The notes under the pieces are model-generated. The model was not told the origin of the DNA, ran no database searches, and saw only the letters and a program-made list of their open reading frames with translations. A stretch of DNA of 64,000 nucleotides, from NCBI RefSeq assembly GCF_964355755.1, contig NC_092673.1, forward strand, positions 14,542,948 through 14,606,947, given 5' to 3'. The DNA is from Antedon mediterranea (Eukaryota; Animalia; Echinodermata). Shown in pieces: positions 13,223-59,905 of this stretch (within the stretch, counting starts at the first letter, position 1; each line of letters opens with the position of its first letter). The position numbers and the translations under genes are program-made.

Positions 13223-14449
13223 TTTGGCAAAAAGAAGTTGAACATTGTAAATAAAGAAAAAATAAGCTATTCACATCAGTCAGAGAGTATCAACAATAAG
13301 TTAACTTGGGAAAAAGAAGCTGATCACTCTAAATAAAAAAAAAGATGCTTTTCAAATCATTCAGAGAGTATCAACAATAAGTTAACTTGGGAAAAGGAAG
13401 CTGAACACTGTAAATAAAGAAAAAAGATGCTATTCAAATCAGTCAAAGAGTATCAACAATAAGTTAACTTGGCAAAAAGAAGCTGAACATTGTAAATAAA
13501 GAAAAAAGATGCTATTCAAATCAGTCAGAGAGTATCAACAATAGGTTAACTTGGGAAAAAGAAGCTGATCATTGTAAATAAAGAAAAAAGATGCTATTCA
13601 AATCAGTCAGAGAGTATCAACAATATGTTAACTTGGGAAAAAGAAGCTGATCACTCTAAATAAAAAAAAAGATGCTTTTCAAATCATTCAGAGAGTATCA
13701 ACAATAAGTTAACTTGGGAAAAGGAAGCTGAACACTGTAAATAAAGAAAAAAGATGCTATTCAAATCAGTCAAAGAGTATCAACAATAAGTTAACTTGGC
13801 AAAAAGAAGCTGAACATTGTAAATAAAGAAAAAAGATGCTATTCAAATCAGTCAGAGAGTATCAACAATAGGTTAACTTGGGAAAAAGAAGCTGATCATT
13901 GTAAATAAAGAAAAAAGATGCTATTCAAATCAGTCAGAGAGTATCAACAATAAGTTAACTTGGCAAAAAGAATCTGAACACTGTAAATAAAGGAAAAAGA
14001 TGCTTTTCAAATCAGTCAGAGAGTATCAACAATAAGTTAACTTGGCAAAAAGAAGCTGATCATTGTAAATAAAGGAAAAAGATGCTATTCAAATCAGTCA
14101 AAGAGTATCAACAATAAGTTAACGTGGCAAAAAGAAGCTGATCATTGTAAATAAAGGAAAAAGATGCTATTCAAATCAGTCAAAGAGTATCAACAATAAG
14201 TTAACGTGGGAAAAAGAAGCTGATCATTGTAAATAAAGGAAAAAGATGCTATTCAAATCAGTCAAAGAGTATCAACAATAAGTTAACTTGGCAAAAAGAA
14301 GCTGATCATTGTAAATAAAGGAAAAAGATGCTATTCAAATCAGTCAAAGAGTATCAACAATAAAGTTAACTTGGCAAAAAGAAGCTGAACACTGTAAATA
14401 AAGAAAAAAGATGCTATTCAAATCAGTCAGAGAGTATCAACAATAAGTT
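13223..14449. repeat. 82-bp tandem satellite, about 15 copies
   Basis: GAGTATCAACAATA recurs at 13285, 13366, 13448, 13530 and onward (81-82 bp period). Confidence 0.97.
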
Positions 14450-22329: not shown

Positions 22330-23992
22330 TTTAGAATTTTATGTTATAAGCTCTACAGACTTTTACAAATCCAAAACGTTTATAAACGTTTTGTTTGCTT
22401 GTTTGTACTTTGTAAAACTACCTCCTCTCCGACTCCTGTACATCCCCATGCTTTTTGTTTTGTTTTGGTTGTTCTGCCCACTAAGAGGCAAACCGAAAAG
22501 GCCAATTTGGTTAGACTTTGGAGTTCTCCAATGATTTGACATGGAATTACCTATGGAAATTGGTTATTAACCACTGGACAAATGCATGTAGAGTAGACTC
22601 TACCATTGTTAAAGTTCGTCTACTGGTGTTAGCGTTTGTCTACTGGTGTTAGCGTTTGTCTACTGATGTTATAGGGGATCTACTTCACACTCTTAATAGC
22701 GTTAGGCTAGCACTCTTGGTAGCGTTAGGCTCGCACTCATAATAGTGTTAAGCTTGCACTCTTACTAGTGTTAGATTCACACTCTTAATAGCATTAGGCT
22801 CGCACTCTTACTAGAGTTAGGCTTGCACTCTTTAATAGCAGTAGGCTCGCATTCTTAATAGCGTTAGGCTCGCATTCTTAACAGAGTTAGGCTCGCACTC
22901 TTTAGCAGCTGTAGGCTCGCACTCTTTAGCAGCTGTAGGCTTGTACTTTAGCAGTTGTAGGCTCGCACTCATAATAGCGTTAGGCTCGCACTCTTACTAG
23001 AGTTAGGTTCGCTCTCTTAATAGCCGTAGGCTCGCATTCTTACTAGTGTTAGACTTGCACTCTCATTAGCGTTAGGCTTGCACTCTTTAATAGCAGTAGG
23101 CTCGCATTCATAATAGCGTTAGGCTCGCATTCTTAATAGCGTTAGGCTCACATTCTTAATAGCGTTAGGCTCACACTCTTTAGCAGATGTAGGCTCCCAC
23201 TCTTTAGCAGCTGTAGGCTCCCACTCTTTAGCAGCTGTAGGCTCGCAATTAATAGCAGGTGTAGGCTTGTACTCTTTAGCAGCTCTAGGCTCGCACTCTT
23301 TAGCAGTGATAGGCTGGTACTATGTAGGCTGGTACTTCTGTAGCAGCTGTAGGCTCGTACTTCTCAGCTGCGGTTGGCTTGTACTTCTGAAGCAGCTGTA
23401 GGCTTGTACTTCTTAGCAGCTTCTTCAGCAGATGTAGGCTCGTACTCTTCGGTAGGCTCGCACTCTAATGTAGGCATGTCCTCTATGGTTCGATCGCACT
23501 CTTTGGTAGGATCGCACTCTTCGGTAGGATCGCACTCTTCCGTAGGCACGCACTCTTCCGTAGGCACGCACTCTTCCGTAGGCACGCACTCTTCCATAGG
23601 CACGCACTCTTCCATAGGCTCACACTCTTCAGTAGACTTGCTCTAACATTGGTAGGCGTGCTCTAACATCAGTAGGCGCACTTTAACATCGGTAGGCACA
23701 CTCTAGCAATGGTAGAGTCTACTCTACATGCATAGTCTGGTGGTTAGTATCCAATTTCTGTGGGTATTTTCATGTCAAATTGTTGGAGTACTTCATAGTA
23801 AAATCAAATTGACCTTTTTGGTTTGTCATCTTAGTTGGCAGAACAACCAAAACAACACTTAAGCATGAGGATGTACGGCTCTTGGAGAAGAGGTGGTTTT
23901 TGTTTTGATTGTATTCATTTTTTTTCTCTTTTTTTTTTCAAGTTTATAAACGTTTTGGTTTTTTAAAAGTCTGTAGATCTTTGTATTCTAAA
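22330..23992. repeat. Foldback: ~300-350-bp diverged inverted arms around an 18-21-bp minisatellite
   Basis: ATGCATGTAGAGTAGACTCTACCATTG (~22582) is reverse-complemented at ~23707. Arms 22330-22680 and 23640-23992 align in inverse. The interior consists of TAGGCTCGCACTCTT-type units. Confidence 0.9.
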
Positions 23993-24387
23993 TATTATGT
24001 TTTTATAATTTGTTTACTGGTATGTTGGCATCAGCTAATGTGCATCTATATGCAGATAACATATTTTATAGATTCTGTTATTTATTAGTAAAATATCATA
24101 CAGTAAAATATACTGCAGTATAACAAACCAGGACAAAACATCTGACCATAACGACCCATAATATTGCAATTTGTTACAATAGCTAATTCCATTTATTTAT
24201 ATATGTATTTTGACTATATTGCATTTTCAGTAACGTGTAGTACTGCAACTAGAAAACTTTACCATCTGTGTCTATGGCAGTTTTACAAACACTACTTTTC
24301 TGTCATAACAGCTTTTACTAATAAGATATTGGATCTGTAACAAGACCTGACCCTAAACCCAAGTCACAGCATTTACACTTCCGCTCT

Positions 24388-24560
24388 ACGCCCCGCCCAT
24401 TTTTCTTAATAAAAATACACGGCGCTGATTGGACTGTTCGATGACGTCACGCACACTTCAACTCGTGGCCTTGTGTTAAAGAGTTGCCGATTCGCTAATT
24501 TGTGATGCAAAATAGCATTTCGTAGCGCTTAAATATAAAGAAATTGTCCAATCAGATCTC
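24388..24560 (+). promoter_or_regulatory. Putative transposase promoter
   Basis: GC box CCCCGCCC (24391), inverted CCAAT GATTGG (24427), CRE palindrome TGACGTCA (24442) and CCAATC (24548), just inside the left TIR. A candidate splice donor TTG|GTAAG lies at ~24674. Confidence 0.5.
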
Positions 24561-25813
24561 TTCTTTGATAGAAGATTCGGATTAATCATATATTGAAACC
24601 CCTAGCAGACTATAAAATAATCATTCTGGAAAGTTCGCTAGTTGTCGGCGGGTGTCAGAATCAAAAGTTTTTGGTAAGTGAGGGTTATTTACCTTTATAA
24701 CTCGCTTATTTGAATATAAACATATTATTTTAAAGAGTCAGCTAGCTTCATTATTTATTTAGGATCATGTTGATATATAAAACCGTACTATTAAGCGAAT
24801 TTAAGTTATTTAAATATGAGCGCACGTCTAGGCCCTACAAACGGCTAGCTTGTTAAAACTCAACAAATGATTGTATGACGCGTCGTTGAGCTGATTGTGG
24901 CCGCGTACGTACAACATGCGCTGCGCAAGCCGGCTAGGCCTAAGCTGGTGGTGTGGCAAGCACGGTTGGTGTGGCCTAAAACTGGCATGGCCGAGTAGCT
25001 TTTTTAGGCCTGAACCTACAAAATGGTGCGTAAACAAGGCCTTGTTATTTTGGATAACAAATAATACTTTAAATTTAATACAGGTGGCCCGATATATTAA
25101 AGTTTAAAGAAAATGTTAATATTAATGAATAATAACTAATAGCCTATATTAATTTTTATTAGTCTTCATTAATTGTGGGTTTTTAAAGTAAAGTTTATGT
25201 GATTTAAATTAAGTAGTACCCCCCCCCCCCAAACTTCATCATATATATATTATTTTATTCTCTTTTGCTTGTAAACTCCTATATTAATAATTTATATTTT
25301 ATTCTGCAATGTGCGCTATACATTGATGTTTATAACTTTATACATTTTTATATTGTTTTTATTTATTTATATTTCAGATTAATTGGTGATTCTGTTTACA
25401 GACGTTATATGCATGGCATGACAGTCACTGATCTGGCTACTTACAGAACATTTTACTAACTACTGTATTCATAGGCCAACAACATAGATAAATAAACAAT
25501 TCAGAATATAAACAATTACAAAAAATATACCGTAGATTGACAGGCATTTCATCTAATATTGATTTGTATTATTTTAAAGCAATTATTTTGACTGTTTAGG
25601 CAATAATTTCTTTATATATTTTTACAGTTCTGTATTATTTTATAATTTAACTACAATTATTATTTTCATTTGTACTTATATTAAGTTGTGAATTAAAAAT
25701 CGTATATTACAAATATAATTTTGATTGATTCCTCTTTTTTGTTTATAATTTCTACATTTTCTTTGTAATAAGTGTGACTATTCAATACATTGTTATTTGG
25801 TAAACAATTCATA

Positions 25814-28800
25814 ATGGTTAAAAATACAACATGTAAATCCGGTGGAAAAAAAAAAAAAAAACGTTACCATGGGGGTATGTCTTCTTCCCAAAAGAAAAAA
25901 AGACGACAGGCATATCGGCGTAATATGGATGGAAAATCAACGGAGATGGAAAGTCAACAGTTTCAAGAACCATTGAAATCCCAATTACCCCCAAAACTGC
26001 AGGCAAAAGGACCAGGAACACAATTGGTACCAGAAACATTTCCAGCAGTACCATTACACGAAGCCGATGACATTCACACATTAAAGAATGAAATAATACA
26101 CTTAAAACAACATAATCAAAATCTAACGGATCAGTTGACTGCCATGACCCAGCAAAATGAATGTCTACAGAAGAATGCAAAAGATCAAACAACAAAACAT
26201 AACGCGACACTTTCTGTTTGTCTTGAAAAGGGTGAGGGTCCCCTGGTAAAAAAGGGACTTCTTTTGACTAAGCCATTTGGAAGTGATGAATGATAAAATT
26301 GTACCTGACTATTCCAAATAAAGATAATCCGAGTTCTGTTGCCAGTAGCAGAATTCTGAGGGCCAGGGCAATTGAATTGAAGCAGGTATTCATTCTTCTT
26401 TTTTCCTAAAATGTTTTATTACAGTACGCTGGAAATCGTAATTTCGATTTTAACTAAGATATAAATCATAAGTCTGATTTAAAATTGGAAATAGGCCTAT
26501 GTTACTCTCCTCCTCATGCATCAAGCAAATACGTAAATGCAAATAAAAAAGGAAAACAATAATTGTATGCAAATGAGACTGGTAACAATTTCCGTGAATT
26601 CGAATTGGAAGGCAAAACTTTCTCGATGGATGGTAAAAAATCAATAATAATCCATCCATCACTTTGTTGTGAAATAATATTCAGTTCATAATATGTAAAT
26701 CAAAATGTTTCATTATGCCCAATAATGTCAGGCTCTTGAAGTAATATCATCTAGGGAAGAATCAACAGATGAAGATCTAATTGCAACGCTAATGGTATTT
26801 GTTAAGCAAAATCCTCGTATTTCGTTGGAGGCATTCAAACGGGCTGGAATCAACTATATTAATAGTAAGTCGAAACATAGAAGGATTCGAATTGAAACAT
26901 TCCGGCCGAATTGCATACGTATTTCTTTATACTGTGAAACTATTTGTATATAAACCATATAAAAATAATTGGTAAATTAACGTGAATCTATTTCAAGCAT
27001 GCCCACATGGTTGAAATTACAGAAAAGCATGCGTATTTTGTTATGGTCGGCGCGTGTGTGTAAATGAATTAAATAAAATGAAAACGATTGACAGACACCA
27101 ATAAGCATATCATTTATTTGCAAGAAAGACACTGGTTAAGTAGCTCATACCATGTCTTGTAGAACTCAGCACAAGTGAAACTCTCGATCTGAAGCTATTG
27201 CTGCGTTTACCAATGCAGAAACTACGCCAGCTCCGCACTTTCCTGACAAACCATGGAATACCAGTACTTGCAAGCGATCGAAAACTGTACAAAGAATTGA
27301 AAGGTATTGCCCGAAAAATCGCATTATTAATTGATCCAATTGATGTTATCGCATATACCGTAATCTATCGCTCCACATAACATCACATTCTTTTAATAGG
27401 ACGGCGAAATTTGTCAGACATCAAGGTAGGTGAGATGGTAATGCAAAAAGCCGCAAATGCAAAGGAAAGCAAAATCGCATTTGTTCGTGTGAACAATATC
27501 CACGACTGGATCAAGGAAGTTGTTCACATTCACGAGCAAAACGATAATTTATGGGAACATCAATGTTTCCATAACGAAGCATGGGTTAAAATAGGTGTAA
27601 GTACATTAAATTATCGATTTTTTAAAGTAAAAGAGTATCATACGAAAAAGAAAATCATAAATCTTTTGTTAGGGTTATTCTATCATTTCTGGCGTAACAT
27701 TATTAATGAACGCTTACAATGCCGCACAAAGTTAACGAATTATATACTGGTTGTTCTGCAATAGGGTGATAAAGGCGGTCCGTCAACGAAATTGGTAGCA
27801 CAGATTGTCAATGTAAACAAACCAAACTCGGCAACAACAACAGAAATAATTTCGATGTATAACGCTTTTGACAACTATTCGAACATGAAAGCTATGTTTG
27901 ATGTGTACACTGAACAGTTCGTTCATTTGCAGAATGAGTCAACACTACAGATAGGGGGATGTGAAAAACCAGTCCGAGTATTTCTCTTCGGAGATTATGA
28001 GTGGCTCACGAAGATCCTGGGCCACCTCGGACCGGTATCTACCTTCCCCTGTCTGTGGTGTTATATCCATCGTGACGACTTGTACAGGCCTGCAAATGAA
28101 CGAACCATTCGTCCACATTCACCAATGATAACATCTGAAGATGGCAACTGGTGTGAAAACGCCTTGTGGTATGCCGAAGAAAGAACGCCAGGGCAAATGG
28201 CAACAGACCTCGCAAACTGCAAAGAAGACAAAAGAAATAAAGGAGACAGCAAGAAAAACAGCAAGTTCCATCACTCAATCTTCGAGGTACCAATACTGCC
28301 AATGGGAAGTGACATGGTGCATGTAGTGCCACCAGTACTACATATCATGTTAGGTCTCACGGTTCGTTTTTATAAGCAAATCGAAGACATTGCGAGAACA
28401 GCAGATGGTAGCAAAAATGTTGAAGAGAACGCAACGTTCGTAGAATGGAACATGAAAACAGAAGAGGTTAAGGAAATAGAAGAGAAGACAGAATTATCAA
28501 AAGCCGACTTAAGGTATCAAGTTTCGCTTCTGGAAGGATTCCGTAAGTGTATGAATGGTAATCGTGGAAATGGTCTTTCAGACAAATGTGCCCTAGCCAC
28601 TTGTGCCCTCGCAAGGAATAAAGTAGAAGGAGTAGTGGCGGGGGACATTTCCTGGATTAGATGTGACAGCTGTGATGAGGAGGTAGAGGAGGATAGGAAA
28701 TGGTTTCATGTAGATTGTGTGGGCTTGAAGGGTGAGGACTATGTGAATATGGAATTCCATTGTCCTCAATGTAGAAAGCAGCTTGAAACACCTGCTGATA

Positions 28801-29540
28801 TTATGGAATGGCAAACTGATAGAGTAGAAAGTTGTAAGGAAAGCTTAGAAAAGATGGAAAAGGAGAAGGGTGTAGCAGAGAAGGAATTGGCGGAAGTATA
28901 TGAAGAAGTGAAAGGGATAATTGGTCCAAGAGAAAAGTTGTTAAATTCAATTCTGGATGGCGAGCTGCACGTCAAAAAGCAAGCATACCATTCGCAATGT
29001 TTTGTTGGGAATCACTGCAAGAAGATTTTGCGTAATTCGGTGAGAGTCCTGGCATGCTTAGAGGGACTTCCCGATCACCAGAGGTATGTTGATTTGCTGG
29101 GTAGGTTGGACCATGTTTTTTCTTTCACAAGTGCAAGATTTTTATGCGACAACGAGGTTGAAGATGTTCGCCAAAGCTGTTGGGCATTGGGAATTTTCTT
29201 TTGCAGTATCTTTCCTGAGCAGAACATTCCGCCCAAACTGCACATCTTAATATCTCATGTTCCTGAATGCGCACTTTTGTTTAGAACTTTAGGTCTGTTG
29301 TCCGAACACGGCATCGAGTCACTCCACGCTCAAGTAAATGCAGACGCCAGGCAATATGCCCCAGTTCGCGATAATATTGAAAGGCTAAGGTTAGTATTTA
29401 ACCTACATAGTCAGAGAGCACTTGTTGGCACTGAAGGGTTGAACACGGGGAGAAGAAAGTGCCAATGTGGTGGATGGTTTTCGGCATAAAGTGACGGGGA
29501 AAAATATTGCAAGACATGTGGCGATCTTCAATCTCTGTAA
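25814..29540 (+). CDS. RAG1-core-like DDE transposase with inserted PHD finger (~940 aa, spliced, probably carrying 1-2 lesions)
   Basis: Phase-compatible GT-AG exons 25814-26385 (frame break near 26290), 26732-26864, 27163-27303, 27400-27596 and 27765-29540. D1 in KIGGDKGG (27768), D2 in LFGDYE (27993), E in SEHGIES (29316). PCLWC, LHIMLG, FVGNH and KLHILISHVPE parallel the RAG1 core motifs. In-frame TAA at 29487-29489. Confidence 0.88.
28587..28772 (+). other. PHD finger (C4HC3) coding segment
   Basis: C-x4-C...WIRCDSC...WFHVDC...FHCPQC, in frame within the transposase. Confidence 0.9.
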
Positions 29541-29550
29541 ATAGTAACCT

Positions 29551-29607
29551 GGCCCCGAAACCGCGACATAGAAATACCGGATTGGTGTCCGGCGGGAAAT
29601 AGTTTAC

Positions 29608-29642
<35 letters not shown>

Positions 29643-30478
29643 GTGTATAGAGAGAGAGAGCACAGCTTTTGTTCTTGTAAGCCTGTATAAATAATGGCCC
29701 CGAAACCGCGACTCAGAAATACCGGGTTGGTGTCCGGCGGGGGATAAAAAAAAAATGTATATAGAGAGAAAGCACAGGCTTATTTATGTTAACATTTTCT
29801 ATCGTACGTTATTTGTAATTTTTTTTTGTTCTTCTAGGCCTATATAAATAATGGCCCCGAAACCGCGACTCATAAATACCGGGTTGGTGTCCGGCGGGGG
29901 ATAGTTTTACTATTAAAAAAAAAAAAAAAAAAACACTGTATATAGAGAGGAATCACAGGCCTATTTATGTTAACATTTTGTATCATACGTTATTTGTAAT
30001 TTGTTTTTGTTCTTGTAGGCCTATATTTAATCATGGCCCCGAAACCGCGACTCAGAAATACCGGGTTGGTGTCCGGCGGGGAATAGTTTACCATAAAAAA
30101 AAAACCACTGTATATAGTTTAGAGAGAAAGCACATGCCTATTAGTATTTATGTTAACATTTTGTCTATCATACGTTATTTGTAATTTGTTTTTGTTCTTG
30201 TAGGTCTATATATAAATAATTGTATAAATTGTGTAAATTATATAAAATCATGGCCCCGAAACCGTGACTCAGAAATACCGGGTTGGTGTCCGGCGGGGGA
30301 TAGTTTCACCAAAAAACACTAAATGTATCAATGATTTTTTTTTTTAAAGCATATGCCTGTTTATGTTAAAATAATTTGTATTTAGTTTAGTTGTATTATA
30401 CACTTTATATATACAATAATGGCCTCGAAACCGCGACTCAGAAATACCGGGTTGGTGTCCGGCGGGGGATAGTTTCAC
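29551..30478 (+). repeat. Six spaced copies of a ~55-bp GC-rich motif inside the transposon 3' region
   Basis: GGCCCCGAAACCGCGACTCAGAAATACCGGGTTGGTGTCCGGCGGGG (with few variants) starts at 29551, 29696, 29853, 30035, 30252 and 30421. Confidence 0.95.
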
Positions 30479-31352
30479 CATAAAAAAAACTAAATAAATT
30501 GATATAATAAACAAAATATACCGTTATGTTTATTAAAACAAAGCACGTACCGTACCAAACAAACAATAGTTTGTGTGTATTTTGTTTCAGTCATGATCGG
30601 ATTAGACCACCTACAAAATAGTTATGTTAAAATGTTATGCCCTTACTAAAATCAATCATATCAATTCAGTAAATAAACAAGTACATAAAAAGATATCAAA
30701 TGAAAAGACAGGTAGGTATATTTTCAACTTTATTCAGTTTTTCAACAGTTGCTAGCTGCACATAATATTTAACACATAACAGCACAGTCTGAGCTGTTGA
30801 ATTGTCTGTGCCGCTGGCCGTGTGCATGTCGTTGCAAAACTACCATGTCACAAATGCTAAACGATGGTTTTTGAAACCGCTGTAAAATAATTAAAAAGAC
30901 ATTAAATAACAATATGAAGTAGATATGTACACATTTATATTATTCAAGATATTAACTGTACTTTTCAAAAATTGTTGAAATTAAATTAAATATGTTTAAT
31001 AGCTTTACAAAGTCCGATCAAATTTCATAACATCTACAGCTTCTGAATTGTTGACGCGCGTATCGAACGCGTTTTCGTGTGTAAAAGTTCAGTGCACTTT
31101 GTTTGGTCGCGTAGCAGTGCTATGATTGGCTAGAATTACCTGTCATTTAAGGTCCGCACATACACGCGCCAGGTACGCGCATATACCATACCGCTAGGCG
31201 GCGGTACAATTTATAACACAGTGTAAATGCTGTGAAGTATGCTGGCTTCACATACTGTTTGTATGTGGTCAAAATGTGGCATCTTGACTTGCCACTATCT
31301 TTGTTTGCATGGGCCAATGTGTTGTCAAATCGTGGCAGCTTGGCCTGCTAAA

Positions 31353-31568
31353 TCATTAGGCTAGCTGCACACTCTTGCAGCATTAGGCTAGCTGCACACT
31401 CTTGCAGCATTAGGCTAGCTGCACACTCTTGCAGCATTAGGCTAGCTGCACACTCTTGCAGCATTAGGCTAGCTGGACACTCTTGCAGCATTAGGCTAGC
31501 TGCACACTCTTGCAGCATTAGGCTAGCTGCACACTCCGGCAGCATTAGGCTGGCTGCACACTCCTGTA
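31353..31568. repeat. 27-bp minisatellite, about 8 copies
   Basis: CATTAGGCTAGCTGCACACTCTTGCAG repeated. Confidence 0.95.
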
Positions 31569-31574
31569 GCTTTT

Positions 31575-32885
31575 TGATCATTCAGTGCAGTAATCATTCT
31601 CGTCATTTCCTTATGGTTCACACCAGAAACCTAATAAATTGAAGTCCATAGAATGAATTCAAAATATTAAATCAACTATTACTTTTATTATTTCAATGCT
31701 ATATGTCTTTACCTAATCTTTAAAAATTCTTAAACCTTTGCTTGGTATAGATTGTTGTATAGTGCTGTTATATGCAGCACTAGGTCTTAAAAACAATCTT
31801 TTTTTTTAAACCTGCCCATTCCCATTCTTGGTGCTATAAGCTTCTTGCTTAAATACATTTGTACCAATATTAGGTATACTGTGTTTCCTTTTTCTTTCCT
31901 TTTTAATTGCTATCGACCATTGATCGTAGATTGTTGTATTGTGCTCTTATATGCAGCACTAGGTTTTAAAAACAATCTTTTTTTAAAGCACTGTTCCTTT
32001 TCTTACAACCCGTAAGGCCTAGCTTGTATAGTGTTTATGAATTGCCTTTATGCAATATAATCAGGCATAGTTCTAATTGAAATCTTTAAAAAAATATCTC
32101 CATCAAAAATATCTTTATCAAAGCCATGTACATTTTCAAAATGGCCAATTCTGTGGATGACTTGTATCCCTTTATTTTCAACTATATCCCTGCATCCTTT
32201 TGAACATTCAGTGTAATGATCTCGTCCTTTCCTTATGGTTTAGTCACTGCTCTGTTGACATGACCAGAAATTTTCATTTACCTTGATTATTTCAATGTTG
32301 TTGACTAAACAAAAATCCATACTGTTCTTAAACCTTTACTTGGTATAAGACATAATGGTGATATTGTTTCACCTGTACCAAAACATCACTTTTTCAAAAA
32401 GCAACCATTCTGCATGCTTTAAGAGCTTTGCACACTACCCTCTTGCATCTACACTTTGATTATTTCAATGCTATATGTCTTTACCTAACCTTTAAAGATT
32501 CTTAAACCTTTACTTGGTATAAGACATAATGGTGATATATTGTTTCCCCTGTGCCCAAACGTCACTCCTTTTGTAGTCCTATTACCTAGAACGCTAATAA
32601 CCACTTTTGCATGCTCTAAGAGCTTTGCATCTACATCTTTTTCTCATTTCCATTTTAATGCTATAAGCTTCTTGCTTAAATACACTTGTACCAATATTAG
32701 GTATACTGTGTCTCTTCCTTTTCAATTGCCATCAACCATTGATTGTAGATTGTTGTATATAGTGCTGTTATATGCAGAAAAATAATCTTGTTTTCAAAAC
32801 CTTATTCCTTTTCTTACAAGCAGTAAGACCTAGCTTGTATAGTGTTTATGTATTGCCATTATGCAATATAATTGGGCATAGTTAA
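31575..32885. repeat. Local direct segmental duplications
   Basis: Blocks such as GCTATAAGCTTCTTGCTTAAATACA (31832, 32660) and CCTAGCTTGTATAGTGTTTATG (32018, 32829) recur. Confidence 0.75.
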
Positions 32886-33282
32886 CATTAGGGTTTTAAA
32901 CTTCGTTTTGTTTTCCAAAAGAATTCCAAAATTAAACAGAATCTGCAGTTCACCATTTGGTAAAAATTAAATTTAAATTTACTATTTGCTAATTGTCTTA
33001 TATCTTTTGAGATTTGTACAAAGAGAAACAAATTTAACTACCATTTATTTAGTACATATTATGGAAAATTGAAATAATTTATGACAAGATACTGTACATT
33101 TTTCAATGCCCTTGTGTTTTTTAAATGACATATTGGCAACCAGGGATATTTAGACTGCACCTTACTATGCAGGAATTTAAGTATAGTATAAATGAGTTGT
33201 TTCCTATTACTGATCAGGAGGCAAAGTAGCCTATGTTATATATATCCACATCCAATAAGTTTGAATCATCATAAAGAACAAC

Positions 33283-38250: not shown

Positions 38251-38909
38251 TGATAATTGCAAACCGAGAACTTAGGAAAGTTAATTTTCTGAAACAACTC
38301 CATCCATCCATCATAATAGGGCAGTTAGGTCTAGGCTGGGAGAGAGAGATATCTATTCATGATGCCGACAAGAAGATTTAACCCATCATTGCAAAATAAA
38401 CATTGACAGATCATATGCAAGACTTTAAAAAGAGCGAGTGTTCAGAGTTAGGTAGGAGCCTATAATTTTGGCTATATAGCATCCTCAATTTAATAATTTC
38501 ACTAGAGATTGATTGATATCAACTTGGCTTGAGCCATGGCATTAGTTGACCAAAGTGTTTTTACTTTCAATGCCACTGCTTGGATATTTGCTCTCATCGT
38601 AATGAATTTCTTCACCATCGAGGGAAGTCAGGAGCTCTCGGATTAGGTTGGCAGTCTTGCGAGTCTGTCACAGTCAAAAGTGACAGATATTTAAAGTTAA
38701 ACGCAAAGGGTAATTTGCATAGAACTAGTCAGGTGTATTACTGTATAAAAGAATTGCGGAGGAATGTAGTAATTACACCTCACATCAACCTTGTAGAGAA
38801 GGGAGGTGTCGCACCTCAGCAATAATACAGATTGACCATTGTAAGTAAGATACTCATTTATTGTAAGATTATATACTTGTAATATACCATATACTTGTAA
38901 TAACGTTAA

Positions 38910-41900
38910 GGTGTCATCTACAAATTATTTCAGACCACAGAGACGCGTCTGAAAACTTGCAACCCATCAGACGCGTCTGTCCAATGCTGAACCTCATTAA
39001 CGATCTATTATGAATATTCATGAGCTACCCAATCGCGGCGAAGACGCGTCTGTGTGATTAAAACCCGTCTTCGTTGTTTAGTAGGTAAAACAATAGAAAA
39101 CGCGTCTGAGTGATTAAAACCCGTCTGTATTGCTTTTATGGTGAAACAACATTGGTATCATTTCACAGAACCAACAAATCTGAGACTGGCGAATCAAACT
39201 GATTTTTTAGTCGAGAATCATAGTTTACTATCGTATTTTTTGCTACACAATTGTAGAAATGTGTAGCAAGAAGGTTGTTTTGTATAGCTTTTTGCTATGC
39301 TACACTGGCGAAATTATTCCCTGGACTAGGCCTAAGTTATCCTAATTTGGACGGAAATTCGTCTCATCGGGCCTCTGGACTTCAGCTCATGCAGAGAGAA
39401 AGAAAGTCTAGGCTAGCCTAGTTTCGGCGGCCTACACTAGGCCTATAAATTATTTAACGCTCCTACCTTGGGTTAGCGAATTATAAAAACAACGACACCT
39501 AGACCTAGGCTAGGATATGAAAAATAAATATATATTCCATATTAAGATTTAACATAGGCCTAGGGCCTAGGCCTTTTAAAATGATTACGACATGTGTAAA
39601 GAAAAAGGCTCGACCAGAATAATAATATTTTTTAATTGTAATCGTTTCCTTCATGCGTGTTTACCTACTCAACGGCGAATATAAATATAAATTTCCCACG
39701 ATGTAAACGTAGAGACACGCGATCCAACACAGGTGAACCTCAACGAACAGGCCAACTAATAAACATATTAGGCGTCATGTCCAAATGTTTCCAAACGTAC
39801 AAACCGCGTCAAACGGTCACCGTTGATAGCTTGATCGTTTAACGCGTGCAACGATCGTAAAAGAGCTAATTAATTTATGCATTTAGTATTGTACCGCCCA
39901 CCGCCCACTGTAATTGTTTAGCCGTTAGACGCGCGTTTAGCGTTAAACGTCGTTTGTTTTAAAATGTCTATGTGTCATCGCCTTTAGAAGCATGGACAAT
40001 ACACACAAACAATGTATTGTTCGCTAATTAAAATCCTATTTAAAGCTGGAAGACGTCAATTTTTGTAGCCGCCCTACGCATCAGTTATCCTAATTTGGCC
40101 GGAAACATCAGCCGACGAGACGACATCGGGCCCGTGGACCTCAGCTCACACAGAGAGAGTTCAGGCTAGCCTAGTTTCGGCGGCCTATACTATAAATTAT
40201 TTAATCCTACCTTGGGTTCAATAACAAATTATAAAAACAACGACACCTAGGCTAGGACACCAACAAAATATATGCAAAATAAATATATATTCCATGTTAA
40301 GATTTTCCAGTCATAGGCCTTTTAAATGATTAAGATATTGTGTAAAGAAAAAGGCCCGACCAGAATTTGGAGTGGGAAAACATGCGAGTGGATCAGAGTC
40401 TGGGAACAGTTTAGATATAAATAGAGGAAATCCAGGTGCACGATCTTAATTACTGTTTTATTGTCGTCAGCACAGCATCCACCACCCTCTAATGGACGGC
40501 CGGCCGTACTGAGTTAAATAATATCATGTTAGAGGTTGAGGTAAAACATCGAGTAGTATCACGTTTCATGCCAAAAAACCCAGGTCTGTATTAATTACGG
40601 TCTTCTCTGTCGGCAATCTTTTTGAGCGACTTGAACGTTTTGATACCATATTTAGAATGAATGTTTTACCATCTTTTTTGTGGGCATCGTTTCTGGATCG
40701 ACGGATGTTCGATATATACGAAGATCGCATCCACAATGGTTTTTTTTTTTTTCAAATTTGCAAAAGTTTTATGTCACAAAAGTGTCTGGTTTTACAGTAT
40801 TATATTATGCTAGTAAATTCTAACTTAGTTAACAAATTAAAAAATACAGAGCGACGACAAAGCTCAAAAGCCTTCACATTCCTTGTTTAATAACTATAAT
40901 AATAATTATTATTAATACAACTAGGCCCTTGTGCAACGGAAAAATAGCCAATGATTTTTATATTTATTTTCAAGAATATTTTACGAGGGTGGTCCATCCA
41001 GCCGAAGCTGATCATTAGGGACCCTCACAAAATTACAATATGACGAGACATTATATAACAATAAAAATTTAATGAAAATAAATCAAATTTATAAAGATAA
41101 ACAAAATAAAATAAAGCACAAAAATAGAATCAAACATTAAATGAATTAAATTAATGATCAGTCATCTTTTCAACGATCTAAATAAGATTACCGACCGGCA
41201 GAATTTGAAGTAAAAACATGTGAGCGCTGTGAACAGGAGGAGAAAGGGGATATCGCGTGACCAACATCTAGGTACTTGTTTACCTTTCTTATGTTATCGG
41301 CCTGCAATCTATGAGCGAGCGAACACCGACGGTCGGCCGAGCATTCACTGCTGCTATTTTTAGAAAACCTTTTTTTTTTATCGATCGGCTACTGTAGACG
41401 TTCGCTAATGCATTTAGAAGTGAGATGTGAATAGTTCACCGGTGGCGTGGCACATCGTGTTGCTTATTATAGGTGCTTAGTTCATCGTATGAACTTCCTA
41501 ATGATATTTTCAGTCGGCTATGTAAAAGAAAGCGACTAAAAAACATTCCAGGCCCCTGTTTATTAATATTAAATTATTTATTGAGGTTACAAACTTATAA
41601 ACATTTTAGAATGATGTTTGAGATCGGCACCCCTGGAATACAATTCAGCTACAAACTCTCTTAATTAAAAGGCAAACTGAAACAGGAATTGTTTGGGCCT
41701 GTTTGTGATGACTCATCGTTAAACGACGTTCACGAAGCGATTCGCAACGACGTTAAACAATTCGTAAAAATCAGTCAAGCATGTTAGTGGGCGGAACTAT
41801 TACAAGCTATGCATATTGTCCATTTTCCAAACGGTCTGACGATTTTAGAATTTTCACGCTAACGCTAAAACAAAAGAAAACGCGATTAACGCGCTTTGTC

Positions 41901-42728
41901 AGTTTGAAAACATTTGGACATGACGCCTTATAGCGAACGTCCAGTCCATCCAGAACGATGCCGAGAACAAAAGATCGTAAACAATTCATTCTAAATATAG
42001 TATCAGAACGTTTTCAGTCGGTAGCTCAAAAAGACTGCCGACGGAAGACCGTAATAAATACAGACCTAGTTTTTTTGGTCACATGGCATGAAACGCGATA
42101 CTCTGGCGGCTGCCGTCTGACGATGATAAAACAGTAATTAAGATCGTGTACCTGGATTTTGTGTCACATGACATGAAACATAATACTCTCTCTCTCTAGC
42201 TCTAAACTGCTCACATGTTTTATCTTAATATTGAATATATATTTATTTTTCATATCCTAGCCTAGGCCTAGGTGTCGTTGTTTTTATAATTCACTAACCC
42301 AAGGTAGGAGCGTTAAATAATTTATAGGCCTAGTGTAGGCCGCCGAAACTAGGCTAGCCTAGACTTTCTTTCTCTCTGCATGAGCTGAGGTCCACAGGCC
42401 CGATGTCGTCTCATCGGCGATGTCCGTCCAAATTAGGATAACCTAGGCCTAGTCTCAGATTTGGTGGTTCTGTGAAATGATACCAATTTTGTTTCACCAT
42501 ACAAGCAATACAGACGGGTTTTAATCACTCAGACGCGTTTTCTATTGTTTTACCTACTAAACAGCGAAGACGGGTTTTAATCACACAGACGCGTCTTCGC
42601 CGTGATTGGGTAGCTCATGAATATTCATAATAGATCGTTAATGAGGTTCAGCATTGGACAGACGCGTCTGATGGGTTGTAAGTTTTCAGACGCGTCTCTG
42701 TGGTCTGAAATAATTTGTAGATGACGCC
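38910..42728. mobile_element. 3.8-kb non-autonomous DNA transposon with very long inverted arms
   Basis: GGTGTCATCTACAAATTATTTCAGACCACAGAGACGCGTCTG at the left end and its near-perfect reverse complement ending at 42728. Arms match over several hundred bp. Flanks are TTAA and TTAT. No ORF. Confidence 0.9.
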
Positions 42729-43159
42729 TTATGTGAAGGTGATATGTGTCATTTTATTATATTTGAATCTTGATAAATTGTAATTCATTTTATACACATG
42801 TTCTGTGCACTGCATTTCTCATCCACTCCGTACATCCTTCATGTTCAATCGTACTCAGGGTATAAATTAAGAGTACCATCAAGGTTACGAAATTTGTAAA
42901 ATAAATAATTATAGGAAATTAAAAGGAGCAATTTGCTTTGCTGCGCCAGCAAGCTACTCAGCATACTCAGATTTACTCCCCCACAGGATAGAAACTAATG
43001 ATAAGCTCATTGAATTGGAGGATGATGATTTCAGAAAGAACACAAGAAATAAAGAAGTATATATAATTATTGATTATGGGTAGTTTGTACATGCACGTTC
43101 AGATTGAACATTATAAACCCACAGGATTTAGTTTTTATAGATAATGGTTTGACCACACA

Positions 43160-49265: not shown

Positions 49266-49725
49266 ACTATTCCAAATACTGAAGTCAGTGAATCTATTCC
49301 AAATACTGAAGTCAGTGAATCTATTGCGAATACTGAAGGCAGTGAATCTATTCCGAATACTGAAGTTAGTGATTTTATTGTGAATACTGAAGTCAGTGAA
49401 TCTATTCCGAATACTGAAGTCAGTGAATCTATTGCGAATATTGAAGTCAGTGAATCTATTGCGAATATTGAAGTCAGTGAATCTATTGCGAATATTGAAG
49501 TCAGTGAATCTATTCCGAATACTGAAGTCATTGAATCTATTCTGAATACCGAAGTCAGTGAATCTATTCCGAATACCGAAGTCGGTGAATCTATTCCGAA
49601 TACCGAAGTCGGTGAATCTATTCCGAATACTGAAGTCGGTGAATCTATTCCGAATACTGAAGTCGGTGAATCTATTCCGAATACTGAAGTCAGTTAATCT
49701 ATTCCGAATACCGAATTAGATGAGT
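49266..49725. repeat. 27-bp minisatellite, about 17 copies
   Basis: TCTATTCCGAATACTGAAGTCAGTGAA units (translate as ESIPNTEVS). Confidence 0.95.
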
Positions 49726-59194: not shown

Positions 59195-59905
59195 ACCATT
59201 GTCATCGCCTTTACTTTAGAAGCATGGACAATGCAAACAAACAATGTATTGTTTGCTAATTAAAATCCTATCTAAAGATAGTAGACGTCAATTTTTGTAG
59301 CCACCCTAGCTAGGCCTACGCATCGGTTATCCTAATTTGGACGGAAATCCGCCGCCGACGAGACGACATCGGGTCCGTGGACCTCTCAGCTCACGCAGAG
59401 AGAGAGAGTCGAGGCTATCTATCTAGTCTAGTTTCGGCGGCCTACACTATACATTATTTAATCCTACCTTGGGTTAGCGAATTATAAAAACAACGACACC
59501 TAGGCTAGGACACCAACAAAATATATGCAAAATAAATATATATTCCATATTAATTACTATAAGATTTAACATAAAGGCGACATGTGTATAAGAAAAGGCC
59601 CGACCAGAATTTGGAGGGGAAAACATGTGAGCAGTTATTAAGATCAGAGAGAGTGTTTCATGTCATGTGACACAAAATCCAGGTACACGATCTTAATTAC
59701 TGTTTATCGTCGGCAGCCACCCTCACATACTGAGTTAAAAAAAAAACATGTGAGATGTTGCGGTAAAGCAGAGAGTATCGCGTTTCATGCCATGTGACCA
59801 AAAAAACTAGGTCTGTATAATTACGGTCTTCTGACGGCAGTCTTTTTGAGCTACCGATTGAACGTTCTGATACTATATTTAGAATGAATTGTTTACGATA
59901 TTTTT
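59195..59905 (+). repeat. Additional copy of the inner arm of the 38.9-42.7 kb element
   Basis: TGTCATCGCCTT..GCATGGACAAT..AGACGTCAATTTTTGTAGCC..TTATCCTAATTTGG..AACGACACCTAGGCTAGGA, as at 39973-40660. Confidence 0.85.

Follow-up and report, generated by a model that had tools for sequence, protein, structure and literature searches.

Which kind of transposon joins a RAG1-like catalytic core and a PHD finger in a single gene, and does such an element belong near the origin of the RAG system? The question is raised by a 6870-bp element (~6.87 kb; positions 24365-31234) in a 64,000-nucleotide stretch of the echinoderm Antedon mediterranea, a feather star (NC_092673.1, positions 14,542,948 to 14,606,947; hereafter the window, within which all coordinates are given). 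A first-pass annotation of the sequence had described it as a complete RAG1-like transposon of Chapaev type or of a sister lineage, encoding one spliced transposase with a built-in PHD finger. Our analysis makes it likely that the element is a broken, single-gene cut-and-paste transposon of the Chapaev group, a superfamily reportedly described by Kapitonov and Jurka in 2007, with a transposase predicted to adopt the RAG1/Transib fold and an internal PHD finger that probably binds histone H3 tails. The superfamily is known; what is apparently new is a PHD-bearing lineage without the Chapa and RING domains.

The ends of the element, a pair of perfect terminal inverted repeats (TIRs) flanked by a target site duplication (TSD), were found as first proposed:

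24361-24364, unstranded: left TSD, AAGT, seen in the sequence and as a single AAGT at the empty site
24365-24379, plus strand: left TIR, 15 bp, CACAGCATTTACACT, seen in the sequence
31220-31234, minus strand: right TIR, 15 bp, seen in the sequence
31235-31238, unstranded: right TSD, AAGT, seen in the sequence and at the empty site

The two copies of CACAGCATTTACACT are identical over 15 bp and their likeness ends sharply thereafter; a partner repeat would arise by chance anywhere in 64 kb with a probability of ~8e-5, and the 64-kb window contains no further copy with fewer than three mismatches. We examined eight public sequencing runs under two organism codes (A and B), of which X1-X4 derive from one sample, possibly the source of the window. 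Contigs from these runs joined the flanks without the element, the check that the annotation had called for: those of X1 and X3 connect 24360 to 31235, skipping 6874 bases with four letters that fit either side, and those of X2, X3 and X4 follow the flank up to 24364 and continue directly with the sequence from 31239. Because the empty site in X1-X4 has one AAGT, the TSD is 4 bp long, a length that rests on one insertion. An empty site was also present in organism B (runs X6 and X7). Read depth, which does not equal copy number, was several times greater in the flank than in the element, and the empty sites are therefore probably paralogous sites within a host repeat. The runs also contain internal-deletion joints (e.g., 24652-27122 and 27763-29173); the element therefore has internally deleted relatives and belongs to a family with derivatives. 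Pattern searches gave 36 matches but no relatives in viral contigs, and 12 loci out of 150 matches in metagenome contigs, none with both TIRs and a TSD.

The family of the transposase is given by the NCBI protein P0001, whose residue numbers we follow and which matched DUF1280 (PF06918) with 84.7 bits (cut-off 25; E 9e-24). The papers cited here by accession were available in part, and what is attributed to them, including silence on a subject, refers to those parts. DUF1280 corresponds to the Chapaev transposases, which form one clade with RAG1 (PMC3985635), and profile similarity thus identifies the protein as a member of the Chapaev group; this match, together with the 4-bp TSD, bears out the Chapaev-type, single-gene reading of the annotation. 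The motifs that it had named also occur in order: D266, D341 (74 residues between, the spacing it had given), C360/C363, LHIMLG, VGNH, H757/H762 and E778/E782, with D266, D341, E778 and E782 kept in most homologs, whether or not they belong to the PHD-bearing side of the tree described below. Chapaev hallmarks are CAC..GTG ends, a 3-4-bp TSD and C(2)C, LH and H(4)H motifs (PMC4079192). The element shares with Chapaev its CAC..GTG ends, 4-bp TSD, one transposase and DUF1280, and its transposase has the GDxGG and GD aspartates as well as these three motifs; core identity to Chapa-bearing Chapaev proteins is 26-32%. It differs from classical Chapaev in having no RING and no N-terminal Chapa (NZD-like) domain but a coiled-coil N-terminus, and in carrying an internal PHD on a stalk. 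A Chapa profile found nothing in the six frames of the element, and because of this we do not file it in the classical Chapa-bearing subgroup. Chapaev3 elements have CAC termini and CMC motifs in common with it, but differ in their Chapa domain and in a 3-bp TWA TSD, against AAGT here.

The PHD finger lies within an insertion in the catalytic core:

28587-28772, plus strand: PHD finger of the Cys4-His-Cys3 type (C539, C544, C564, C567, H579, C582, C597, C600) with W561 and W577, from ligand pattern and profile
28431-28919, plus strand: inserted stalk, in which long helices at residues 487-527 and 607-649 flank the PHD, from an AlphaFold2 model with a predicted local distance difference test score (pLDDT) of ~87-97

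In the model this insertion falls between the zinc sites ZnC2 and ZnH2, and the finger is predicted to sit at the tip of a ~40-residue coiled-coil stalk leaving the zinc-binding insertion domain. The best solved matches of the finger in the window were ING2 (E 1.4e-5), PHF2 and PHF8 (38 matches), and those of the family profile were PHF2 and KDM5B (59 matches); neither the 38 nor the 59 solved matches include a RAG2 chain. In an ESM Atlas structure search nearly all rows were PHD clusters, at a template-modeling score of ~0.5; an Atlas feature search with the PHD alone gave no usable match, and a single-sequence fold of stalk and PHD was poor (pLDDT 45.9). Ligand pattern and profile similarity identify a real PHD finger in this transposase, as annotated.

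Comparison with homologs indicates that the finger marks a lineage. A profile search seeded on this transposase gave 626 representatives at E <=1e-30, of which the best 150 were listed, and from a set of 165 homologous proteins 120 were kept (at least 480 aa, both core halves covered). An internal PHD was present in 46 of these core-complete homologs and absent from 74. In a tree calculated without the insert columns, one branch (support 99, length 0.44) splits 50 rows from 70: the 50 comprise all 46 with the PHD and four without, one of which has a long cysteine-rich insert, possibly a decayed finger, and none of the other 70 has an internal PHD. IQ-TREE on 62 of the 120 proteins recovered the identical split at 100/99, with the bootstrap not fully settled; this sample dropped 15 PHD-side rows, took in 10 of the 53 rows on the other side that have no Chapa pattern, and placed the four PHD-less rows on the PHD side after the first tree. 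The two sides also differ in their other domains. The Chapa profile matched 29 of 36 long other-side proteins vs none of 17 long PHD-side proteins, and a Pfam scan of 42 chosen proteins detected RAG1_imp_bd or RING in 14 of the 20 without an internal PHD and in none of the 22 with one. Median insert length is 211 residues on the PHD side vs 124 on the other, and a C-terminal four-cysteine motif occurs in 24/37 vs 2/13. The internal PHD thus appears as a lineage trait on a deep Chapaev branch that lacks Chapa and RING, likely following a single gain, and the annotation had understated its extent. Named members come from Antedon, Amphiura, Saccoglossus and Clytia, placing the lineage in echinoderms, a hemichordate and a cnidarian, and probably in nematodes too.

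Three proteins show further domain combinations. On the PHD side, P0157 has an extra N-terminal Ulp1-type protease module (E 1.2e-6) and P0144 an extra N-terminal module with a weak MYND finger match. P0075 is a DUF1280 transposase with a PHD at its N-terminus (113-162) rather than within the core, which would be consistent with a second, independent PHD capture.

How much of this is already known? Chapaev transposases have been described through the Chapa domain, either alone or combined with RING, and with no link to PHD fingers in the portions available (PMC4411706; bioRxiv 10.64898/2026.01.24.700457). Nor do the accessible parts of PMC3014272, PMC7917558, PMC11662393, bioRxiv 2021.09.26.461848 and bioRxiv 10.64898/2026.08.26.747230 connect the two. 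A PHD finger does occur in the transposases of Rehavkus (PMC6446971), a MULE-related group that likewise has one DNA transposase with a PHD but belongs to an unrelated superfamily, with a 9-bp TSD and longer TIRs; the likeness is convergent. It is rather probable that the lineage itself has been catalogued, the Chapaev families of C. elegans in Repbase/Dfam being members, so that only the remark on the PHD would be new. The top two ESM Atlas clusters for the brittle-star relative P0004 consist of DUF1280 proteins, mostly from nematodes (91 and 94 members; scores 0.96 and 0.90), auto-named 'Zinc finger PHD-type domain-containing protein', and the nematode cluster ranked first both by features (0.96) and by structure. 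These proteins were likened to the element by annotation, namely DUF1280 and the PHD name, and are probably Chapaev elements of the C. elegans type. In the scan of 42 proteins, DUF1280 scores also peak on the PHD side (P0155, 127 bits; P0037, 104 bits). The first page of the Chapa alignment in PMC4411706 lacks a row for C. elegans, a species (CE) that is included in the tree, and its legend names Chapa losses. However, searches for named nematode members gave unnamed proteins only, and no description of a PHD in Chapaev transposases was found in the literature searched, a scope that left Repbase and most subscription journals outside. The architecture is undescribed in that literature, but it is not unique to this element, being annotated automatically in nematode proteins already, and Rehavkus is a precedent for a PHD finger in a DNA transposase. 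The PHD lineage is apparently undescribed in print while visible in automatic annotation.

We favor the reading of the element as a Chapaev-group transposon whose finger contacts histones, and its mechanism can be outlined by analogy with RAG and Transib. A transposase dimer would bind the CAC-tipped TIRs, nick and then close hairpins on the flanking DNA, and the ends would be joined to the target with a 4-bp stagger. As modeled, the stalk would hold the PHD clear of the core and within reach of a nucleosome at target or donor DNA. The finger might then tether the enzyme to open chromatin methylated at lysine 4 of histone H3 (H3K4), a step to which we give slightly less than an even chance. 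Such tethering would parallel the role of the RAG2 PHD, but would have been gained independently and within the same polypeptide. One tryptophan of the finger precedes the third cysteine by three residues and the other precedes the histidine by two, matching the KDM5B finger in the printed alignment, and we take these to be the methyl-lysine cage positions, after KDM5 PHD3 and the ING fingers; no aromatic residue directly precedes the first cysteine in the window finger. Fingers could be parsed in 44 of the 46 relatives (two unparsed), and 23 of the 44 have both tryptophans, which are kept throughout the close echinoderm-type group.

Several observations weigh against this reading. The tree is unrooted and was built without rows for RAG1, Transib or named Repbase elements, and its sample is biased toward the query. 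The PHD lineage has itself diverged, with the ZnC2 cysteines kept in only 33/46 and 32/46. The window finger scored 20.4 bits on the Pfam PHD profile, below the cut-off of 24, which two relatives (P0036 and P0046) reached among the 42 proteins scanned. PHD labels came from a profile and a pattern built on the same proteins, so that the ligand conservation of 44-46/46 is partly circular. One or both tryptophans are absent from 21 of the 44 parsed fingers, and reading of trimethylated H3K4 (H3K4me3) is therefore not general to the lineage. The element itself is inserted in repetitive flanking DNA that is not visibly a promoter, although a single site says little. Finally, the role of the PHD and the activity of the enzyme are predictions from sequence and model.

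The same element might instead carry a PHD that is no histone reader but a structural zinc module, a tip that binds DNA or host proteins, or an autoinhibitory plug, an appreciable possibility but one that we rank below chromatin tethering. The loss of cage tryptophans in those 21 fingers while the zinc ligands stay would be expected in that case, and four PHD-side proteins have no recognized finger at all. The RAG2 PHD not only recruits to H3K4me3 but also keeps the signal-end complex from capturing a target (PMC12337333). However, the solved matches are nearly all PHD fingers, and the modeled finger is flanked by the two long stalk helices and separate in sequence from the helices of the core. 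Many of those solved matches are presumably H3K4me3 readers, and the close echinoderm-type group retains both tryptophans.

A further possibility suggested by the fold is close kinship with the RAG transposon, or even a place among its forerunners: a single gene would then combine RAG1 catalysis with a PHD like that of RAG2. The first letters of the TIR are CACAG, as in the heptamer of the recombination signal sequence. The AlphaFold2 model, built from 114 sequences (mean pLDDT 88.5), matched only RAG1, BbRAG1L and HzTransib at E <0.001 among the Foldseek matches listed. In VIA-align, RAG1 was the top match (Z 26.7; 462 residues aligned; root-mean-square deviation 3.9; 13% identity), slightly above HzTransib (Z 24.9) and BbRAG1L (Z 24.5) and well above the next family, the P element (Z 13.9); residues 150-826 of the model align with mouse RAG1 459-1007 in the same order throughout the catalytic core. 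A RAG1/Transib fold is thus predicted for the transposase, and the structural comparison proposed in the annotation gave the matches that it had anticipated. Its label 'RAG1-like', however, holds at the level of fold, a likeness general to the Chapaev group: identity over the structural alignments with RAG1, HzTransib and BbRAG1L is 12-14%, against 26-32% to the Chapa-bearing Chapaev cores, and sequence searches of the PDB returned no RAG1 or Transib chain. Because no Chapaev structure is among the fold matches, RAG1 and Transib are merely the nearest solved proteins. By its modeled fold the protein belongs to the CMCT group, a clade defined in PMC12730594, without a specific place beside RAG; the supplement to that paper contains no 'Chapaev' text. 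In common with RAG1, BbRAG1L (ProtoRAG/RAGL) and HzTransib, the element has the catalytic-core fold, CAC-tipped ends and a C2H2 zinc site, but it has no NZD or RING, its TSD of 4 bp is one short of the 5 bp usual for RAGL and Transib elements (PMC7204232), although some Transibs deviate (bioRxiv 10.64898/2026.08.26.747230), and its PHD lies in the catalytic chain and resembles ING/PHF2/KDM5 fingers rather than RAG2, which is absent from the solved PHD matches. Two marks of RAGL elements, a second, convergent RAG2-like gene and more than 30% core identity to RAG1, are both missing, and the longest open stretches outside the gene (91 and 102 codons) leave no room for a RAG2-like gene. The forerunner reading is therefore largely refuted and very improbable, and the element probably does not stand in the direct ancestry of RAG.

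The state of this copy follows from its gene structure:

24393-24552, plus strand: probable promoter with GC box, CCAAT boxes and a cAMP-response-element (CRE)-like TGACGTCA, from a motif scan, with putative function
25814-26385, plus strand: coding exon 1, frameshifted, with a basic stretch, a coiled coil (model helix 48-88) and a conserved pre-core segment (homologs)
26281-26304, plus strand: frameshift region, from run contigs
26732-26864, plus strand: coding exon 2, GT-AG, in frame, part of P0001
27163-27303, plus strand: coding exon 3, where the DUF1280 and RAG1-core fold matches begin
27400-27596, plus strand: coding exon 4, ending in WVKIG ahead of the first catalytic aspartate (splicing model, P0001)
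27765-29489, plus strand: coding exon 5, the RNase H-like core with ZnC2 (28050-28061) and ZnH2 (29241-29258), from motifs, fold and P0001
29460-29540, plus strand: C-terminal four-cysteine motif, interrupted by TAA at 29487-29489, from homolog tails

Exon 5 encodes D266 at 27768, D341 at 27993 and the likely catalytic E782 at 29316. Four GT-AG introns link the five coding exons in frame; these calls rest on sequence, homology and the NCBI gene model, and the X5 contig spanning the introns was left out of the evidence since its identity as RNA would be a guess. The NCBI protein P0001 (838 aa) consists of 25925-26245 plus exons 2-5, sharing its last four exons with our model, with an identical exon 5. 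The start codon of exon 1 is uncertain, and an A run at 25845 is shorter by two bases in two runs. A probable intron in the 5' untranslated region, with a GTAAGT donor, a long pyrimidine tract and AG, spans 24674-25377. Rfam gave no matches within the element.

Spliced as it is, the gene can be read from 25814 for 159 codons before a stop. The frameshift region has 34 letters in the X3 and X4 contigs vs 24 in the window, and X2, from the same sample, agrees with the window. The 30 residues downstream of the break match the homologs P0025, P0024 and P0004 (41-44%; small-database E values of 0.002-0.009), which marks it as a frameshift rather than an intron. An intron at 26232-26323 that would bypass it was rejected, as homologs align within. 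The premature TAA cuts the four-cysteine motif that homologs keep, and run X6 has a sense codon at its position. A 942-aa conceptual product, 35% identical to P0004 in a full-length alignment, was obtained only with X at both breaks. Of the single spliced transposase of ~940 residues first reported, the in-frame introns thus stand but the open frame does not, and the element is complete at its ends only. As judged from the window sequence, this copy is broken twice and cannot encode the full protein, and the intact frame that an autonomous active element needs is missing; with its ends intact, it could still be mobilized in trans. That the locus is instead a domesticated host gene, making the 838-aa protein by splicing around the frameshift, is highly unlikely: P0001 retains the catalytic residues, but its splice loses a homolog-conserved segment, its C-terminal motif is cut, and the perfect TIRs, the TSD, the empty sites in organisms A and B and the deletion derivatives all point to a transposon.

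With this copy dead and the superfamily known, the lasting value of the locus is the PHD lineage, widespread in invertebrates. As an outgroup of RAG1 and Transib, Chapaev transposases have been studied little, and interest in them has centered on the Chapa/RING N-terminus shared with RAG1; a deep branch that lacks it but has a PHD inside the catalytic insertion would alter the picture of domain gain and loss near the origin of RAG. It also suggests two separate origins for the coupling of RAG1-fold enzymes with histone readers. The widest scenario, of an old third RAG1-fold design in which a single chain exchanged its Chapa/RING N-terminus for a PHD that reads histones from a coiled-coil boom, steering or gating integration by H3K4 methylation (a job later taken by RAG2 in vertebrates) and spreading in cnidarians, nematodes, hemichordates and echinoderms, is speculative and on balance unlikely. 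The brittle-star relatives P0004, P0024 and P0025, with naturally open frames in their gene models, make the targeting of chromatin marks by a one-protein transposase directly testable, which would also be of interest to builders of integration tools.

Between the gene and the right TIR lies one more feature:

29550-30480, plus strand: six repeats of 145-217 bp with a GC-rich ~52-bp core, from repeat analysis and run depth

Because the core has ~100x the depth of the unique part and its loose ends run into many contexts, it is a repeat found across the genome. The idea that it forms structured RNA or the hairpin of a Helitron end was dropped, with folding z of -0.2 to -0.4 vs shuffles. Rehavkus likewise has a minisatellite ahead of its 3' TIR (PMC6446971). 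Minisatellites of 18-27 bp with a common GCACACTCT-like unit lie on either side of the element (22400-24360 and 31239-33000), in a flank that is multi-copy in the reads, and the host site is probably a larger repeat or transposon that the element has interrupted.

Elsewhere in the window, a 239-codon open reading frame at 47475-48194 matches DDE_Tnp_IS1595 (E 1.8e-20) and represents a Merlin-type transposase unrelated to the Chapaev element. Inverted repeats of ~280 and ~240 bp (38907-39187/42451-42731, 97.5%; 39324-39555/42215-42454, 91%) likely delimit another TIR element of ~3.8 kb at 38907-42731, to which a stretch at 59200-59905 is related. Tandem arrays occupy 13224-14449 (82 bp, 15 copies) and 49267-49715 (27 bp, 16.6 copies).

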